64,000 nucleotides of DNA from the IMG/VR virus record IMGVR_UViG_3300045988_137393. One strand, given 5' to 3'. Shown piece after piece: positions 1 to 56,048 of this stretch; position 1 is the first letter of the stretch; every line of letters begins with the position of its first letter. The translations under genes and the position numbers were made by a program. Source of the DNA: a virus. The notes below the pieces were generated by a model, which worked only from the letters and a program-made list of their open reading frames with translations, made no database searches and was not told where the DNA came from.

Positions 1-1241
1 TTAGTAAACCATTTATCCATATCCAACTGAGATTGAACAGCATTTCTTTCTGCGATAATAGAATTATATACATCTGTAGCAGAATCAACCTCAGACTTTC
101 TTTTATTGTATTCGGCAGTAACATTGTTCAAATCCTCAAGATTTTGCTGATACAGATTATAGTTAAAAGAATTTGGCTTATTCATACCTTGGGCACAATA
201 AACTTCATCTATGTTCTTGAACGATTTAACCTTTGAATCCAGAAAATCCAATCCACATTTCGTCCAATCCTTAGAATCCAAACTATCAGGTAATCTCGTT
301 TCAAGTTCCTGAATAACACCAATCTGATCACCAAGATGCTTCATAATTTCTTCGTACTGTGGTTTTAAAGATTGATATTTTTCATTATATAACTTTACTT
401 TGTTCTGAATAGATTCTTCCATTTCAGGTAAATAATATTCAAAATTATAAATCTTATTTGTGCTATTTGGATTGACTTCATTGATATAAATTCCATCACC
501 ACCATTTACACGATAGCATGTAATAATGCTATTTTCATCAATGCTTTCTATCATAGACTGCGCAAGATTATCCATTGAGATATAGATATTTGTATCTTCT
601 CCATAATCGTCTAAATCATAAGCATTTATAGTCATATTGAATGTATCGAAAACAAACAAACAATTAAATGCTTCTGATACATCACCAGTCAAAAATGAAT
701 ATATATCTATATCGTCCTCGTCAAAACTTCTTTGTTTGTTAGCAAGAGTAGCATCTACATGACCAACCGACCAACTTGGAGCAACATTCAATACACGATG
801 CAATAAACTTCCTTTAGGGTTTGTAGGATCGTAGAAGATGGTCTTTACATAATCGTCATACAAAATCTCGCCCGTATTACATTCAAAATCAATGAGTCGC
901 TTGTTACACAATGTACACTCTAATGAATTTGCTGTAATACTTTTTGAGATCCCTGTATTCTCAATATTAGTCTCCGCATGAATTTTATACCAGCCAATAC
1001 CCTGTACCATAATCAAACGATCTTCTTGAAAATCGTCATAATGTTCATATTTCTTACCATTGATATCTCTATAGATTTTAAAAGAAGCAGTCTGATAAGC
1101 ATTTAGATTAAAAGTAAGAGATAAATCATCATAAATACTTACTGCACCAAGAAAAGTTTTATCCTTTTTAGCAATGTAGATAATTGGTTTTTCAAGATTG
1201 TTCAAGAAATCAACGGGTAAATTAAATGATTGAACCGCCAT
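1..1241 (-). CDS. Tail-associated (Tal-like) minor structural protein, C-terminus cut by window edge
   Basis: Hand translation gives an open minus-strand frame from the ATG at 1239-1241 to base 3 (MAVQSFNLPVDFLNNLEKP...). The start overlaps the stop of the upstream Dit-like gene (ATGA). It sits directly after the TMP and Dit-like genes. Confidence 0.6.
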   Translation of the reverse strand, partial: MAVQSFNLPVDFLNNLEKPIIYIAKKDKTFLGAVSIYDDLSLTFNLNAYQTASFKIYRDINGKKYEHYDDFQEDRLIMVQGIGWYKIHAETNIENTGISKSITANSLECTLCNKRLIDFECNTGEILYDDYVKTIFYDPTNPKGSLLHRVLNVAPSWSVGHVDATLANKQRSFDEDDIDIYSFLTGDVSEAFNCLFVFDTFNMTINAYDLDDYGEDTNIYISMDNLAQSMIESIDENSIITCYRVNGGDGIYINEVNPNSTNKIYNFEYYLPEMEESIQNKVKLYNEKYQSLKPQYEEIMKHLGDQIGVIQELETRLPDSLDSKDWTKCGLDFLDSKVKSFKNIDEVYCAQGMNKPNSFNYNLYQQNLEDLNNVTAEYNKRKSEVDSATDVYNSIIAERNAVQSQLDMDKWFT

Positions 1242-18834: not shown

Positions 18835-18853
18835 AATCGTGAGGTGAATAGAT

Positions 18854-18997
18854 ATGGCAAAATCAAAATTTACAACAACACTTGATTCAGAATTATTAAA
18901 GAAAGCTAAGATTGAAGCAATTCAATTAGATATAAGTGTTGCACAATTTCTCGAAAAACTTATCGAGAAATACTTTGAGGATAAAGATAAGGAATAA
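18854..18997 (+). CDS. Ribbon-helix-helix (CopG/Arc-like) small DNA-binding protein, 47 aa
   Basis: RBS GAGGTG before the ATG. MAKSKFTTTLDSELLKKAKIEAIQLDISVAQFLEKLIEKYF fits a beta-alpha-alpha RHH pattern. It falls below the track length cutoff. Confidence 0.6.
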   Translation: MAKSKFTTTLDSELLKKAKIEAIQLDISVAQFLEKLIEKYFEDKDKE

Positions 18998-19012
18998 TCC
19001 TTATCTTTATCC
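18979..19012. repeat. Perfect 15-bp inverted repeat spanning the RHH stop codon
   Basis: GGATAAAGATAAGGA ataa TCCTTATCTTTATCC. Neither side has a clear U-tract. Confidence 0.8.
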
Positions 19013-19133
19013 AAAGGTATTCCCAAACGCCTAACAGCAATGGGATAGAGGTTATGGTTCTTAGCCATTTATCAAATATTTTGATAATAAACGGTTATGA
19101 AAAAGCCGATGAATCCGCTCTTTCTTTTAAATA

Positions 19134-19310
19134 TTAAATTTTAAATATGATAAGTCGCAATTCCCAATGAGCATTGGGATATTTATCAATATTACTTATC
19201 ACGAAATTATGTACTTCATTCATATTTCCAAAGTTCTTGTCAACATGAATTACTTTACCACCCAATAATTCCAATTCTTCACAGATTACATTGTAAAATG
19301 TTTTCTCCAT
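19134..19310 (-). CDS. Hypothetical small protein
   Basis: RBS AAGGAG before the internal ATG (MEKTFYNVICEEL...). It lies directly after the XRE gene stop. Confidence 0.55.
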   Translation of the reverse strand: MEKTFYNVICEELELLGGKVIHVDKNFGNMNEVHNFVISNIDKYPNAHWELRLIIFKI

Positions 19311-19321
19311 ATCAATTCTCC

Positions 19322-19555
19322 TTATCTCTTTATGCAAAACAAATCGTACAAATCAACATGTAATACATGAGATAAAGATACTGCATGAGAGAGTAGTATA
19401 TCAGAAGTATATCCATTTTCGAGATTGGATATTGCAGTTGCTGACAATCCTGTACGTCTCGCAAGTTCTGATATTGACATATTCTGTTGATACCTATATC
19501 TGCCTATTTCATTCTTCATGTATTTAGTCTGTGTATAATCTGTTTTTCTATACAT
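19322..19555 (-). CDS. XRE-family helix-turn-helix regulator
   Basis: NMSISELARRTGLSATAISNLENG is a typical HTH_3 motif. Confidence 0.75.
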   Translation of the reverse strand: MYRKTDYTQTKYMKNEIGRYRYQQNMSISELARRTGLSATAISNLENGYTSDILLSHAVSLSHVLHVDLYDLFCIKR

Positions 19556-19614
19556 ATATAATAAGGAAGAAATTCATAAGTTGAATTACTGGATTTTATG
19601 GTATAATAAAAGTA

Positions 19615-38252: not shown

Positions 38253-38921
38253 ATGAACACATCATATAAAACAGCAATCAAATTCAAAGACTTATATATT
38301 CCTGTAAAAATGGTCAAAGTATCTCATAATAACTCAATAGAACTTAATCAGCTCTGCAAAGATTCAAAGGAAAGAGTACGTTATATCAAATTTTGCCCAT
38401 CATGCAATAAAGAAATTCACAATGAAGATATTGTGAAAGGATATAGATATGCAGAAGATAAGTATGTTATTTTGGAACAATATGATATAGAATCAATTAC
38501 ATCAAACCAAGATAGAACACTTTCAATAAAATATTTCTGTAAATCAAAGGAAATATCAGACATACTCATAGATAAATCATATTATTTAATTCCTGAAATG
38601 AATTCAGAAATCGAATATGAGCTTTTTCGCAAAGCTATGACTACGAATAGAGTAGTAGGTATTGCTGAAATTGTATTGGGTACAAAACAAGAATTAGTTG
38701 CGTTATTTGCCAATAAGAATTGTATTATTGCAACCATTTTATTTTATGAGAATGAGATTAACGAATTGCCGATTATCATGAAACACAAAATAGATAAACA
38801 ACAACTCGAAAATCTCAAACAAGATATTATAGATAATACAAAAGATTTTAATTGGAATTCACATTATGATAAATATCAACTCAAACTAAGAGAATTAATA
38901 TTTGAAAAAATTCCAAAATGA
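38253..38921 (+). CDS. ku: Ku-like DNA end-binding protein
   Basis: RBS AAGGAG. IKFKDLYIPVKMVKV...RVRYIKFCPSCNKEIHNEDIVKGYRYAEDKYVIL...KSYYLIPE...ELVALF...ATILFYENEI matches the bacterial Ku core pattern. Confidence 0.75.
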   Translation: MNTSYKTAIKFKDLYIPVKMVKVSHNNSIELNQLCKDSKERVRYIKFCPSCNKEIHNEDIVKGYRYAEDKYVILEQYDIESITSNQDRTLSIKYFCKSKEISDILIDKSYYLIPEMNSEIEYELFRKAMTTNRVVGIAEIVLGTKQELVALFANKNCIIATILFYENEINELPIIMKHKIDKQQLENLKQDIIDNTKDFNWNSHYDKYQLKLRELIFEKIPK

Positions 38922-39980: not shown

Positions 39981-40031
39981 TATATATACACTCCTTTCTT
40001 TTATTTTTAGTTTTCCTTTTAATCGTTGAGT

Positions 40032-40103
40032 TGCGGAAACAGGACTCGAACCTGCATTCTCTTGGTTATGAGCCAAGTGAGCTTCCATTGCTCGTCATTC
40101 CGC
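40032..40103 (-). tRNA. tRNA with CAU anticodon (Met or Ile2), slightly irregular
   Basis: Anticodon arm CTTGG-CTCATAA-CCAAG, T arm GCAGG-TTCGAGT-CCTGT and D arm GAGC-AATGGAA-GCTC. The acceptor pairs only 6 bp cleanly, with an extra nt before the D stem. Confidence 0.6.
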
Positions 40104-41026
40104 TATGATAATAGGAGAGGAGCGACCTCCCCATATTATATGTAGATTGGTAAGATCTACTGCCGATTGATTACCAGTCAACCGACAAAGAGAATATTGA
40201 AAATTCTCTGACATGTAATATTATCCAGTTGCAACGCCACATCGGAATTAAACCGAAATCTTCTCTGATATGAGACGCATGTTCAATCATGCTGATGACC
40301 TGGATAATATATTATTCTCCACATATTTTCAGTCTTCGGAGCAAAGACCTCTTGATAAGGTTTAATGACTCTTATCCGTCAATTAAGATTCTCATTAACG
40401 TAGAGAGGCACGAACATCTTCTCATTTCTGAAGGCTGAGATAAACCGATGATCCTAGATGTCGGTAGGAAAGAAATAGGACTTACAATACTACATGAATA
40501 ACAAATGCCAAGTTGATTTTTTCATATTTCAAATGAAACCGTGATGCTGTATCAACCCAATAACGGTTCACTATTTTGTGATTCTTATTGACTAACAGAA
40601 TCACTTTACCTACAACGATTAGAGGTGTTCCACACTTAACGGTGGTGGATTACCATATTTTTTAGTTGTCTACTAAGGCAAGATCTCTCCATAACACCGC
40701 CAATGAGCAGTAAGCAGTGGGAAGTTTTAGACCGTTCCAAAGTCAATAATTTCGCAAACCGACCTTTATATTTATGTCGCATATCGGTCAGCGACAGCTC
40801 ATTTGTAAAAGTCCGTCAACGGATTAACAGACCGCCCTCACTTCTTATGGATGTGAGCAGCTTTGTTATATTTTATTATTCTCTACATTGTCGTCACCTC
40901 TCGGCTCAAATATCACGTTGCTATGCTTTCTTGTTTAAATTAAATTGTTGATGTTGGACGAAAGCTTCATCGGTATCCTCAGTTTCTTCACGAATTATAT
41001 ACATCTGAATGGTTTCGGAAGGATTA
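40104..41026 (-). ncRNA. Large (~0.9 kb) ORF-free structured region, candidate giant ncRNA (N1)
   Basis: No credible ORF on either strand. The region looks richer in G+C than its flanks. It holds many stable hairpins and a possible pseudoknot at 40757-40796. It ends in the hairpin GGGGAGG-UCGCU-CCUCUCC (40114-40132), which pairs better on the minus strand (G-U versus A-C). Confidence 0.5.
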
Positions 41027-41980
41027 TTAAATTTCAACACTATCTTTTAACTTTCTTACCTTAGAAGTGTCTATTTTAATGTAATATTTTTTTGTGACAT
41101 CCGTTCCAGAATGATTTAACATTGTAGACACATCTTCCAAGCTAACACCTTCATTTTTAAGCAAAGTGGCATAACTATGACGAAAATCATGAGGATGTAA
41201 TGTTGGAACGCCAATCATATTTCCGATCTTTTTACACCAGTCATTTAATGTACCACTTTGAATCGGCTTATTTTCATTGGTGTATGGAGTAATAAATATT
41301 CTTCCGTGGTCATCAATGTTATTATCTTTTCTGTATTGAATTAGTTTCTCAAGATACCCCTTAGTTTCTCTACTAAAACTTAACTCAACAATTTTCCCCT
41401 CTTTTTCAAGCACATTACTACAAATTCTTTCATCAAAATCTACTTGTTCCCATTTTAAACTGCCAATAGCAGTAACTCTTGCCATAGTAGTTAAAGAAAG
41501 AAAAGCATATGCCTGTAACTGAATATCTCCATATTCTTCAAGTTTTTCACGCATTAACTGCACTTGATCTTTTGTAAGATATGTTTGCACAGCGATAGGT
41601 TGACCATTTTTAGGTCTATCAATAAATTCAGTAGGAGATTCTACAATCAATTTTTTCTTACGAAGGAATTTGTAAAATGCAGAAACAGAAGACATAACTC
41701 TTTTTTGTCTTGCAACATTATTCCCTTGTTGTTTCCTCCAATAATAGTATTCTGTGATATCATCCTCTGTTGCTTCCAATACAGATAAATTAAACTGATT
41801 ATCATACATATAAATAAACCATTGTCTTAAATCTATATTGTACGCATTAATAGTATTAACTGATAAATCACGAATAGACATATCTACTTGATACTTTTGA
41901 AACAGTTTTAATGTTTCAGGATTTATATGTTCAAGTTTATCTTCATCATACATTACAATTCTTTTGCTTCGTTCTGCCAT
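41027..41980 (-). CDS. int: Tyrosine integrase/recombinase
   Basis: HPHDFRHSYATLL...LNHSGTDVTKKYY provides the HxxR...Y catalytic signature. RBS GGAAGTGAG lies before MAERSK. Confidence 0.85.
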   Translation of the reverse strand: MAERSKRIVMYDEDKLEHINPETLKLFQKYQVDMSIRDLSVNTINAYNIDLRQWFIYMYDNQFNLSVLEATEDDITEYYYWRKQQGNNVARQKRVMSSVSAFYKFLRKKKLIVESPTEFIDRPKNGQPIAVQTYLTKDQVQLMREKLEEYGDIQLQAYAFLSLTTMARVTAIGSLKWEQVDFDERICSNVLEKEGKIVELSFSRETKGYLEKLIQYRKDNNIDDHGRIFITPYTNENKPIQSGTLNDWCKKIGNMIGVPTLHPHDFRHSYATLLKNEGVSLEDVSTMLNHSGTDVTKKYYIKIDTSKVRKLKDSVEI

Positions 41981-42043
41981 TTTCTCACTTCCTTTCATAA
42001 CAAAAAGAAGCAGTAGTAGTAATAACTAAACTGCTTCATCAAA

Positions 42044-46204: not shown

Positions 46205-47008
46205 TCCTTACTTAATATGAGCTGAGATATTTGACTCAATACACTAACACTTACTGTGGTTGGACACAGTTTATCACACAAGCGATTAGCTTGTAGTTAG
46301 CAACAACACCGATTTTGACATAATCGGCAAACTCTTACCACAAAGTATTATAGATTTTCTTTCTGCACATTCTTCCTTGCGAGATTCATAGGTTGCAGCC
46401 TATTAGAGTTGCACGTACTTGTACTTTCTCATATAACACCTTGCGAGTGCTATATGTCACCATATTACAGGTGAATAAGTTGTTTTTCTCTTTGCGGTCG
46501 CACACACTTTTGCTGTTTTGTAATTTTCTTTTAAATATTATTTACCTAAAATAATTTGATTTCTTTCAAAAGTATGTACTTATTATGGACGATGAGGTGT
46601 ACATTTGATCATCCGTACCTTTTGAGTACAGCCCAATCATCACCATCCTGCTCGGATTGCGATCTCCTTACTTTTTGATTCCATCCCTGTTTTTCAACTT
46701 AAGAGATATTACCAAAATCCTACCAGCGGTTATACTTGCGGTATTCCCACCAATAGTACACAAATCATACCCACATTTCTGTGTTACTACAGTGCCTATT
46801 TCAAGACACCCACCAATCAACCATATTCGCCAACAGTTGTCCTTGAATAGAAGGTTGGGCGTAGATTTTATGTGTTTTCCGTTAAACTGTATTTCACAGT
46901 CGCAGCCTTATAATACGATAAGAACCACTTTATACATGTCGCCATGCTTATTTTTGAGATTTAACATCTCCTGATCCGAAACCAACCAGTCCTACAAAAG
47001 TAGAAAAG
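46205..47008 (-). ncRNA. Large (~0.8 kb) ORF-free structured region between tRNA-Asn and tRNA-Pro (N2)
   Basis: No credible ORF; the track ORF 46657-46974 lacks an RBS. It is bounded by tRNA-Asn at the 5' side and its own terminator at the 3' side. On the minus strand, two CUC-GCAA-GG GNRA hairpins lie at 46375-46383 and 46439-46447. Confidence 0.55.
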
Positions 47009-52688: not shown

Positions 52689-52719
52689 TAAAAATTCCTC
52701 CTTTATAGGTGATATTTAT

Positions 52720-52739
52720 TTATTCTCCATCTGAAATTA
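52720..52739. repeat. 20-bp perfect direct repeat, copy 1 (TTATTCTCCATCTGAAATTA)
   Basis: Identical to 53011-53030. Confidence 0.95.
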
Positions 52740-53010
52740 AGTGGAAGAGAACCTTGCGAGCGTTCAGTAAAGTAGGTCTGAACCCCCACCTGTTTGTTTT
52801 ATTTTTGAAATTGGTAGGGGGTGAAACCCACTTTGCCGAACTGAAAGAAGATATATAACATTATTAATAAGATAGACTATTACGCTTGTATTTCGCTTAC
52901 GCTTCATACAAGCTCTTTAATTTTTTGTTTGATTGTTATTGGTTGATTTGGGTACATGGTGTTTTGGATTAATGGTTTCATTTGAGTACATGTGAGATCT
53001 ACCTATAGTG
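52740..53010 (-). other. 271-nt structured insert flanked by 20-bp direct repeats
   Basis: No ORF. On the minus strand it contains GCUUGUAU...AUACAAGC (8 bp), GUUCAG...CUGAAC (6 bp), ACCCCC/GGGGGU and a CUC-GCAA-GG hairpin (52752-52760). Confidence 0.5.
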
Positions 53011-53413
53011 TTATTCTCCATCTGAAATTATAATTCTGTTTCAAATTAACGTACTTCTCTGTGAAGATATTATCTACAAAAAATACTGGTAGCTTATCAT
53101 GATACATTTTATAAATTTCTTCACCTGATAAACTTATCCAAAAATTACTACCTATTTGTCTTTGTTTCTGCAATGTTTCGATTTCTTCCTGATATTTACT
53201 ATTTTTAATTATTCCTCCAATTTTTCCACAGATAGTACAGTAACTGCATAATGATGTATGAATACGTTCTTTTTATACGTTACTTTTAAAATTCCATTTA
53301 TATTGAATCAGACATTCTTCATAATGATGTTTGTGCTTTGATTTGCGGTTGCTCTTTGAGATATTACTTTCTGTTGACTTGAGATATTTTGGTATTTCGT
53401 TTTCATGTATCAT
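53003..53413 (-). pseudogene. Zinc-ribbon ORF interrupted by one in-frame TAA (53273-53275)
   Basis: RBS AAAGGAGG precedes the ATG at 53413. Reading gives 46 codons, then TAA, then 89 more in-frame codons with no start codon of their own (KERIHTSLCSYCTICGKIGG...). The His/Cys ligands are split across the stop. Confidence 0.55.
53011..53030. repeat. 20-bp perfect direct repeat, copy 2
   Basis: Identical to 52720-52739. It forms the last codons of the interrupted zinc-ribbon ORF. Confidence 0.95.
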
Positions 53414-53524
53414 ATTTAATTCCTCCTTTGATGTATTATTCTCTCTTTGTGAAAATGTGATTATTGCACTATTGTTCTTTTGGTAGTAAAATAAATATAT
53501 ATAATTTTAAAGGAGGAATTGTTT

Positions 53525-54539: not shown

Positions 54540-55260
54540 TAGGTTGAGATTCTTGAGTGTGGCTTTTGATGGAAAAATCGTTATCGGTGAAAACGCTTAT
54601 ATATAAGGAAGAAAATAGGATTGTTGGTGTGATTTTTGGTAAGATAGAAGTTTGAAATTTAGGGGTTGAAGTGAGTGAAATGGTTGAAAAATAATGGTTT
54701 TGACGATATGGGGTACGATAAGTGGTTTGAGATGGTAAAATTGGGATTTTGCTTGATTTTGTTGGAAATTTTGATGATTGGGGAAGGATGGATTTTTGAG
54801 TTGGTGTATGGAATAACCAGCTATAGGGTTTACTGCATTTCCAGTCCATCTAATTAGTTTTAACTACCCCGGCTAGGCAAAAACAATGGATAATAGATAT
54901 ATATTATACATTGTTTTTCTGATCCGATTTTCACAACAAATAGTATTAAAAACTATGTGTAGTAGTAGTTATTGGTTCTATGACATATAGTTTAATATTG
55001 TTATAATCCAATATAATCTTAATATCGTTTCCATTCACCACTTTTATATCAAAATCAATAATTTTTAGGTTCACATTCTCCACTTTATACCATAAAACCT
55101 GTCTAAAAATGGGACAGTCCACCACCACACAAAACCAACCTATAATTCTATTGTTAAAATTTCACAATAACACACACCATAACCACACTAAAACTACACA
55201 TATTTCACAAAACTATAAAATCTTATGAAAAAGACTTGAATATCTCACAAAAAAGGACTA
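54540..55260. other. Strand-asymmetric non-coding region (C-poor GT block, AT-rich centre, G-poor CA block): candidate replication origin
   Basis: 54560-54830 has almost no C on the plus strand, with repeated GGTTGA/TTTTGA-type words. 55130-55260 has almost no G, with CCACAC(A/T)AAAAC-type words that are their approximate reverse complements. The interval between them is AT-rich. Confidence 0.35.
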
Positions 55261-55906
55261 TTATACAGTTGTCCGAAGGGATAGGACATAAAACAAGTCC
55301 CATTGTTAGCACATCTGTAAAGAGGACACCGAACCTCACTTGACATCATTAGTTAAGATAGAACCTATCCAAGAATGATGTAAAACCTCACGGCTACTTG
55401 TACAGCCATTCCAAAGCGGATTAAAAAAGCTATCATATATAGCAACGTACAGGGCACTTGATAGCAGTTATTAAGAGGTTGAATTGATACCTTAATGAAA
55501 CAATTCAGTAAAGCCACACTATAGCAGGCACGTGAATAGTAGGAACGATAGAAACCTCATTAGTAGTCAAGTGGCTACTAATTACCATTCCGGCGATGTG
55601 TAACCGGCAAGACAGCAACTCATAAACGTATTAAATAATCTTTACAAGTGTATCACTTGTTTTGTGGTAAAAACATTAAATTACATAACAGGTTTATTAT
55701 ACCACATTCAAAGAGGTTGTTTCAACCTAACAAGATTAAATAGTACAATACCGCTTTATATGTCAAGCGTTAAAAGTATGGCAATATGACATAAGTATAG
55801 CAGGGTACGCAAGCTATACAGTGTAATTGTAAATTATTACAATAAGCACATTCCGCACATTACAATAATAAGCCACCAAGTAAACATGAAAAATGTTGAA
55901 TTATCC
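55260..55906 (+). ncRNA. Large (~0.65 kb) structured leader/ncRNA candidate (N4) ending in a tRNA-like element
   Basis: No ORF. The module AAACCUCA-hairpin-CCAUUCC is repeated (55383-55412 and 55552-55591). A possible H-type pseudoknot involves ATTAAG 55470-75 with CTTAAT 55491-96, and TGAATTG 55480-86 with CAATTCA 55501-07. Many 6-8 bp hairpins are present. Confidence 0.5.
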
Positions 55907-55994
55907 AGTCGCATTGAGCAGGCTCAGTCTACGCTTTTTTAAGCGGTTGTGAATTAAGCACATTTGAGAAGTGGTTCGATTCCACTTGCGACTT
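55907..55994 (+). ncRNA. tRNA-like element A (88 nt): canonical acceptor and T arm, aberrant centre
   Basis: Acceptor AGTCGCA/TGCGACT (7 bp) and T arm AGTGG-TTCGATT-CCACT are canonical. The interior holds GAG-CAGG-CTC, CGCTT-TTTT-AAGCG and TGTG-AATTAAG-CACA hairpins in place of normal D and anticodon arms. Confidence 0.5.
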
Positions 55995-56048
55995 TACCAA
56001 AAAAATAATTATATTGCACTCATGCGTTAAATGAGAGAAGGAGACATT

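Follow-up and report, generated by a model that had tools for sequence, protein, structure and literature searches.

A conserved modular RNA fold next to the integrase gene in a GOLLD-bearing tRNA island of a phage

The IMG/VR virus record IMGVR_UViG_3300045988_137393 was analysed over a stretch of 64,000 nucleotides (nt), hereafter the window, in which the region under study, referred to as the block, occupies positions 40104-41026. The block begins at the stop codon of a tyrosine integrase gene (41027-41998, minus strand), the adjacency expected of a phage attachment site (attP), and the product of this gene has matches in both Pfam (Phage_integrase, 4.2e-23, together with a SAM-like N-terminal domain) and PHROGs (PHROG 1 integrase, 1.8e-47). 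Its downstream boundary is a gene for a transfer RNA (tRNA), tRNA-Met (CAU; 40030-40104, minus strand), called by ARAGORN and scoring 49.1 bits with the Rfam tRNA model. ARAGORN made seven tRNA calls in the window, of which this one abuts the block directly, and the orientation of the block is that of the integrase and of six tRNAs. A tRNA-adjacent location in a phage or prophage is a trait of GOLLD RNAs, and it is present for the block when its context is compared with the description in PMC12286853. The data presented here indicate that the minus strand of the block carries a conserved, covarying, pseudoknotted and multi-junction RNA fold, in a tRNA island that also bears a GOLLD RNA.

Taken as a whole, the minus strand of the block folds at -239.9 kcal/mol with a z-score of -3.65, as compared with -2.33 for the plus strand (20 shuffles per test). 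The minus strand is taken as the RNA strand because several conserved G-U pairs (e.g. GU 70, UG 64) would turn into A-C mismatches if the plus strand were the RNA. Both results support the proposal of an earlier note, made from the sequence alone, that a structured minus-strand RNA reaches up to the tRNA, where a hairpin with a G-U pair precedes tRNA-Met. When read 5' to 3' on this strand, the block is composed of a candidate micro open reading frame (micro-ORF), a header motif, a domain B, an insert I, two junctions C and D, an element E and a series of hairpins F; where positions within the block are given, they are minus-strand (RNA-sense) coordinates p, the window coordinate being 41027 - p. 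The block is thus organised as a mosaic of separable modules and not as one uniform 0.9 kb RNA, and its conserved unit, B together with C-D, spans about 450-600 nt and not 923 nt.

Domain B (40695-40863, minus strand) starts with two 5' hairpins, Hh1 (CUCAC.UC/GA.GUGAG) and Hh2 (GUCUGUUAA/UUGACGGAC), followed by a multi-helix domain that is closed by AUGAGC/GCUCAU and that holds a hairpin S1, a hairpin H3 and a helix S2 in which the S1 loop pairs with downstream sequence. S1 (UGUCGC/GCGACA; 40791-40796 with 40775-40780) and S2 (loop GACCGAU with GUCGGUU; 40783-40789 with 40757-40763) together form an H-type pseudoknot at 40757-40796 (minus strand). A covariance model of B (R1, 169 positions) scored 207.5 bits on the window and gave 77 matches in 83 loci, and pairs were counted on the resulting alignments of the fetched loci; a MAFFT alignment of all B variants misplaced an insert of the type found in relative L055, and the covariance-model alignments were used instead. 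Across 53 distinct sequences, 92.5% of the cells were paired, as compared with 82.2% in shuffles and 34-48% in slid controls, and two-sided changes occurred in 35 of the 49 pairs (195 cells). The covariation score was 0.228 vs. 0.115 for shuffles and 0.02-0.07 for slid controls, and none of 500 shuffles reached any of the values observed for B. Helix S2 lies outside the covariance model, which could therefore not have shaped the alignment in its favour; pairing nevertheless holds in 91.3% of the S2 cells, and four of its seven pairs change on both sides (AU to CG 9, CG to UA 9, AU to UA 7). In the group of L055, S1 is ACAGCC/GGCUGU rather than UGUCRC/GYGACA and S2 is CUCGU/ACGAG rather than GACCGAU/GUCGGUU, each at the same place. 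The H-type pseudoknot, which the earlier note had put forward as a possibility at the same coordinates, is real and covarying, both helices being kept by different sequences in diverged relatives. Two extra helices of B are not claimed, namely PK2 (GGAA/UUCC), which is 72.8% paired, and helix 8 (CACUGC/GCGGUG), in which changes are mostly one-sided.

The core C-D (40311-40520, minus strand) consists of two four-way junctions, the first of which (C, about 40414-40516, minus strand) is closed by a helix P1 and the second (D, about 40316-40406, minus strand) by UCUCUAC/GUGGAGA. The corresponding covariance model (R2, 210 positions) scored 251.6 bits on the window, with 97 matches in 98 loci. In 78 distinct sequences, 91.7% of the cells were paired vs. 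87.9% in shuffles and 30-46% in slid controls, and one P1 pair illustrates the changes found across the alignment, occurring as CG 32 times, as UA 18 times and as UG 14 times. Two-sided changes affect 41 of the 55 pairs and again no shuffle out of 500 matched the observation, so that the covariation check proposed in the earlier note, run on both B and C-D, gave a positive answer for each. Between B and C, the window carries a lineage-specific insert I (40517-40656, minus strand) of ca. 140 nt with four hairpins, which is absent from most relatives, in which B joins C after about 30-70 nt. This insert replaces the 5' strand of P1, which changes from ACAUCUU to UCAACUU with one mismatch.

Integrase homologues were found at 69 loci of IMG/VR, most of them on contigs of 80-210 kb, and the extent to which the block accompanies them is variable. 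L003 and L060 match it over its full length (96.7%) and L001 over block positions 2-722, while L055 matches positions 2-76 and, after a 1 kb insert, positions 143-334 and 502-727; the match is restricted to positions 504-673 in L049 and to positions 505-808 in L051, L066 and L067. At least 113 IMG/VR contigs contain an 18-mer of the core (40481-40498) and 78 contain a 17-mer of domain B, and among the fetched loci profile hidden Markov models detected B in 99 loci and C-D in 156. A 20-mer of the core is further present in two species-representative genomes, Coprococcus ammoniilyticus and Eubacterium segne, which are both Clostridia, and a protein identical to the integrase is found in 226 indexed blocks of a public assembly collection; ERR13989631 and ERZ28638006 are among the samples carrying the phage. 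No match was found among INPHARED phage genomes, whether by blastn of the block or by megablast of its 12 kb context. With the same profiles, B is followed by C-D in 82 of the 85 evaluable loci and C-D is preceded by B in 81 of 142; of the 78 motif-fetched loci with sufficient DNA, 64 have an integrase homologue in the 3 kb preceding the core. One relative is L226 (ENA ERZ28660703, 3973-4603), whose integrase is 100% identical to that of the window and in which the block is reduced to the micro-ORF and C-D (83% identical), followed by tRNA-Asp and tRNA-His. This situation is a cassette exchange inside the tRNA island; it indicates that B is dispensable and departs from the description, given in the earlier note, of a single structured non-coding block of ~0.9 kb. 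Based on the module co-occurrence counts, on L226 and on the junctions found in L185, L188 and L199 (see below), C-D is the constant core and B a frequent 5' extension.

The block is otherwise poor in coding sequence, none of its ORFs exceeding 82 aa. The 82-aa ORF at 40703-40951 (plus strand) has no match in Pfam or PHROGs and its frame is disrupted by single-base indels in close relatives; it was therefore rejected as a protein-coding gene. The absence of a conserved long ORF, the frame-breaking indels among relatives and the fact that gene callers left the gap empty in four of the five metagenome contigs shown support the non-coding status of the block. The exception is segment A (40921-41040, minus strand), which overlaps the integrase stop codon, occupies the integrase-proximal ~106 nt of the block and behaves like a coding micro-ORF in its pattern of sequence change. 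Its product is 39 aa in the window and 28-31 aa in relatives, with the conserved peptide core NPSETxQMYVIREDTEDxDEAF[V/I]. Among 15 distinct nucleotide versions, variable sites are distributed as 6/3/11 by codon position with conservative replacements, and the open frame never exceeds 49 codons. Segment A is best regarded as a candidate, since the window copy lacks its stop codon (TAA to CAA), the frame is shifted in L003 and L076 and the ribosome-binding site (RBS) is weak. The statement of the earlier note that no credible ORF is present thus applies to 40703-40951 and is contradicted by the amino-acid-level conservation of the micro-ORF.

Downstream of D, element E (40219-40309, minus strand) is a relic of a tRNA-like cloverleaf enclosed by an outer stem of 10 bp. 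Its homologues in L051, L066, L067 and L183 are called as tRNAs by ARAGORN but not by the Rfam tRNA model at gathering score; in the window, E is called neither by ARAGORN nor by that model at E<=10. L092 has a canonical T-loop (GGTTCGATTCC) and the window a degenerate one (GGTTTAATTCC), and E is a tRNA relic or a tRNA-like element. Of the hairpin-dense sequence noted earlier for the interval, about 90 nt belong to this decayed tRNA-like element and not to a novel fold.

The occurrence of a tRNA-like segment next to an integrase raises the question of whether all or part of the block serves this enzyme as attP or as some other substrate for recombination, attP sites often carrying tRNA 3' halves. 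The block does abut the integrase gene, and its core is syntenic with an integrase homologue in most loci, as described above. On two bacterial contigs, of 420 kb in Coprococcus ammoniilyticus (NZ_JAOQJS010000004.1) and 340 kb in Eubacterium segne (NZ_JACOOZ010000003.1), C-D and the tRNA-like element however stay collinear with the integrase and with the tRNAs that lie downstream, all within a few kb (8 kb were read per contig, and it is from the contig sizes that integration is deduced). If these are integrated prophages, then none of those elements is the prophage junction. Moreover, compensatory changes that tolerate G-U pairs point to a constraint on RNA and not on DNA, and the degenerate T-loop of E cannot match a functional host tRNA. 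The collinearity is strong evidence without being proof, and we consider an attP role very unlikely, in line with the doubt expressed in the earlier note.

Between E and tRNA-Met, four strong hairpins, F1 to F4, are predicted (40108-40210, minus strand). F1 is a palindrome containing GAGAAT, and the last hairpin (40108-40139) ends 4 nt before tRNA-Met. This longer stem includes the terminal hairpin GGGGAGG/CCUCUCC (40114-40132), in which one minus-strand G-U pair, replaced by A-U in L185, is found as the earlier note had described it. In L185, L188 and L199, the tail of B runs straight into the 3' arm of the last hairpin, and the tRNA that comes next is a different one; this suggests a deletion or an insertion between GGRGAGGUC repeats. 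One example is seen in L185 (2185-2400), where the B tail GGAGAGGUC is joined to the 3' arm of the terminal hairpin and to the tRNA.

Such an arrangement might be expected if the structured domains were a cis-acting leader or spacer of the tRNA operon, which would guide or buffer processing by RNase P, RNase Z or RNase III, or terminate and insulate adjacent units, and which would then be degraded without any function in trans. The region is indeed always found among tRNAs and ends in a hairpin 4 nt from one of them; the same terminal hairpin precedes different tRNAs in relatives, and modules and tRNAs are reshuffled jointly. A processing spacer would, however, need far less than what is kept across cassette exchanges, namely a pseudoknot of 7 bp, two four-way junctions and single-stranded stretches that do not vary, and C-D is retained even where all the flanking tRNAs differ. 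A purely cis-acting role is therefore regarded as unlikely.

The same mosaic architecture could also be that of non-functional debris of a fast-recombining tRNA island, whose apparent conservation would result from close kinship among the phages. Several features fit with this hypothesis, including what is clearly a relic of tRNA origin, deletions between short repeats, the frameshifted micro-ORF of some loci and the high identity among many members. Decay would nonetheless not account for helices S1, S2, H3 and Hh1 of B, the sequences of which differ between the group of the window and that of L055 while the helices are kept at the same positions, nor for the fact that every covariation measure is above all 500 shuffles and all slid controls. 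Likewise, C-D has diverged to 83% identity beside a 100% identical integrase with its fold kept. Taken together, this makes the debris hypothesis quite improbable.

The header motif GGTGACGACAATGTAGAGAATAAT (40875-40898, minus strand) is located upstream of domain B. In relatives, motifs of the AGAGAATAAT type mark the borders of modules, where they precede B, precede stand-alone C-D units and form the 3' strand of D, and one copy of the header motif lies ~30 nt upstream of an RBS and an ATG. The sequence GAGAATAAT has six exact copies in the window vs. 1.75 expected, and apart from the 17-nt header no part of the block was found repeated in the rest of the window. Copies of the AGAGAATAAT/AGAGAATATT motif in non-coding stretches of the window were noted at 11989-11997, 12240-12248, 40311-40319, 40875-40883 and 53435-53443, all on the minus strand. 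The header would be a promoter-like or punctuation signal and may be a phage promoter element. The GAGAATAAT header could not be matched to a clean -35/-10 geometry, and a scan for sigma-70 promoters and terminators performed no better than chance (15 hits vs. 14.7 expected). The over-representation of GAGAATAAT, and its occurrence as a palindrome both in F1 and between the halves of B in the L055 group, could alternatively indicate that the conserved elements act as DNA, whether as an origin, as a packaging signal or as operators or promoters assembled from GAGAAT half-sites. This would account for the short header motifs only and would leave unexplained 380 nt of helices that covary, include G-U pairs and form a pseudoknot, and we give very little credence to it.

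Comparison with known RNA families was performed with Rfam 15. Scans of the whole window, at the gathering threshold and at E<=0.01, found only tRNAs; such scans miss GOLLD through their speed filters, and the block and its relatives were therefore searched as short stretches. In 40000-41100, searched at E<=10, only the flanking tRNA was detected, with neither GOLLD (RF02032) nor ROOL (RF03087), and no Rfam match, including GOLLD and ROOL (E<=5 for ROOL), was obtained for four canonical relatives (L125, L082, L132 and L141). The comparison with known families suggested in the earlier note was thus negative for the block and for these relatives. The positive control of the search was the sister block, which is a GOLLD RNA (46219-46648, minus strand; RF02032) whose 104.5 bits (E = 6e-28) fall short of the gathering score of 150 and which is located between tRNA-Asn and tRNA-Pro, 5 kb from the block. 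In the relative L002, GOLLD is above the gathering score. At ~600 nt upstream of the L002 GOLLD RNA, a weak R1 match was noted (516-629, plus strand; 19.5 bits, E = 0.012), and blast aligns 32 nt of L002, at 597-628, with positions 300-331 of the block.

GOLLD and ROOL are large phage RNAs of unknown function that were lately shown to form RNA-only nanocages; they have been reported in phages "often near tRNA islands", with tRNAs sometimes found within the GOLLD linker, and the predicted structure of ROOL is highly complex with several pseudoknots (PMC12286853). The block shares with ROOL its phage or prophage origin, its location near tRNA islands and the lack of a known function, and with GOLLD the same setting, a large multi-domain organisation and the presence of embedded or adjacent tRNAs or tRNA-like elements (PMC12286853). 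The C-D core and the B extension further recall the conserved 3' part and the variable or optional 5' part of GOLLD, but the helices and conserved motifs of the block are different and its RNA would be about 450-600 nt long as compared with more than 800 nt for GOLLD, whose homo-oligomeric nanocage is a 14-mer. ROOL RNAs average ~580 nt, a length similar to that of B plus C-D. With 455-600 nt, one well-supported pseudoknot and a second weak one, B plus C-D nevertheless bears only a resemblance to ROOL, from which the block differs in having two four-way junctions and a pseudoknotted 5' domain in separable modules. The block thus resembles GOLLD and ROOL in context and style and fails membership of both by the covariance-model test.

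Two other comparisons are more distant. Phage T4 encodes in its tRNA cluster the stable RNAs "species 1 and 2" (rnaC/rnaD), which are small, structured, of unknown function and co-transcribed and co-processed with the phage tRNAs. These belong to another phage group and are much smaller. A catalogue built from IMG/VR by Fremin et al. in 2023 contains 8,495 unnamed structured-RNA candidates, which include tRNA-like candidates as well as short candidates with high expression in human-gut Lachnospiraceae phages (PMC10690425). Fragments of the block may already be among these candidates; the four examples highlighted in that study are 64-86 nt long and carry no family names (PMC10690425).

Overall, we hold it probable that the region is the tRNA-island part of a temperate Clostridia gut phage of ~80-210 kb and that it encodes a modular, structured, minus-strand non-coding RNA, GOLLD/ROOL-like, that is processed with the tRNAs. 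Transcription would occur by read-through from the integrase gene, from the AGAGAATAAT-type headers or from both, and the transcript would run into tRNA-Met and be co-transcribed with the tRNAs, so that RNase P cleavage at the tRNA 5' end would set the 3' end of the RNA, which the terminal hairpin may protect. Once released, this RNA of ~450-600 nt would have a trans-acting role in infected cells, as a GOLLD- or ROOL-like structural RNA tied to the tRNA biology of the phage. Whether B-C-D corresponds to a single trans-acting RNA of this size is a more tentative proposal; it would then represent an undescribed class of ornate phage RNA that shares the niche of GOLLD and ROOL, is co-resident with GOLLD and has a related function, for instance in higher-order RNA assembly or in a tRNA-linked role during infection. 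With conserved, pseudoknotted domains that have no counterpart among catalogued families and that lie in the tRNA island of a GOLLD, the block makes a good candidate for another such class.

Several observations weigh against this interpretation. The modules are separable, so that B and C-D could be separate RNAs or be dispensable: C-D occurs without B in 61 of 142 loci, B without C-D in three loci, and D is missing in some. In the window itself, insert I has introduced a mismatch in P1, and PK2 and helix 8 of B are weakly supported. A few diverged lineages contribute much of the covariation signal, and the covariance models themselves fitted the alignments to the nested helices. Finally, the assignment of a promoter is ambiguous, the scan having returned about as many hits as expected.

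Other features of the window and its relatives were noted in the course of the analysis. A gene for a Ku-like DNA-end-binding protein (38253-38921, plus strand; Pfam Ku, 3.5e-37) lies on the opposite strand within the tRNA island. In the window, ARAGORN also detected a tRNA-like gene whose anticodon has two bases (55907-55994, plus strand), and it reported a suppressor tRNA with the anticodon tta in L066 (9131-9215); together, these hint at stop-codon recoding in this group of phages. Other gaps of 0.7-1.2 kb without an ORF of at least 90 aa are located at 11846-12592, 18751-19614, 52689-53518, 54850-56030, 57676-58369 and 58790-59650.

The present data indicate that sizeable covarying RNAs of IMG/VR phages are left unannotated by Rfam-based annotation. 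The phage concerned would be a common human-gut phage to work in, given an integrase indexed in 226 assembly blocks and an RNA core present in two Clostridia genomes, and the loci described here would offer a natural comparative series, with or without B, with or without D, and with cassettes swapped beside an identical integrase. If the proposed reading is correct, a further and unrelated structured RNA family occupies the niche of GOLLD and ROOL, and does so in the same genome as a GOLLD; it would provide a new target for electron cryo-microscopy and an entry point to the role of such RNAs in phages rich in tRNAs.

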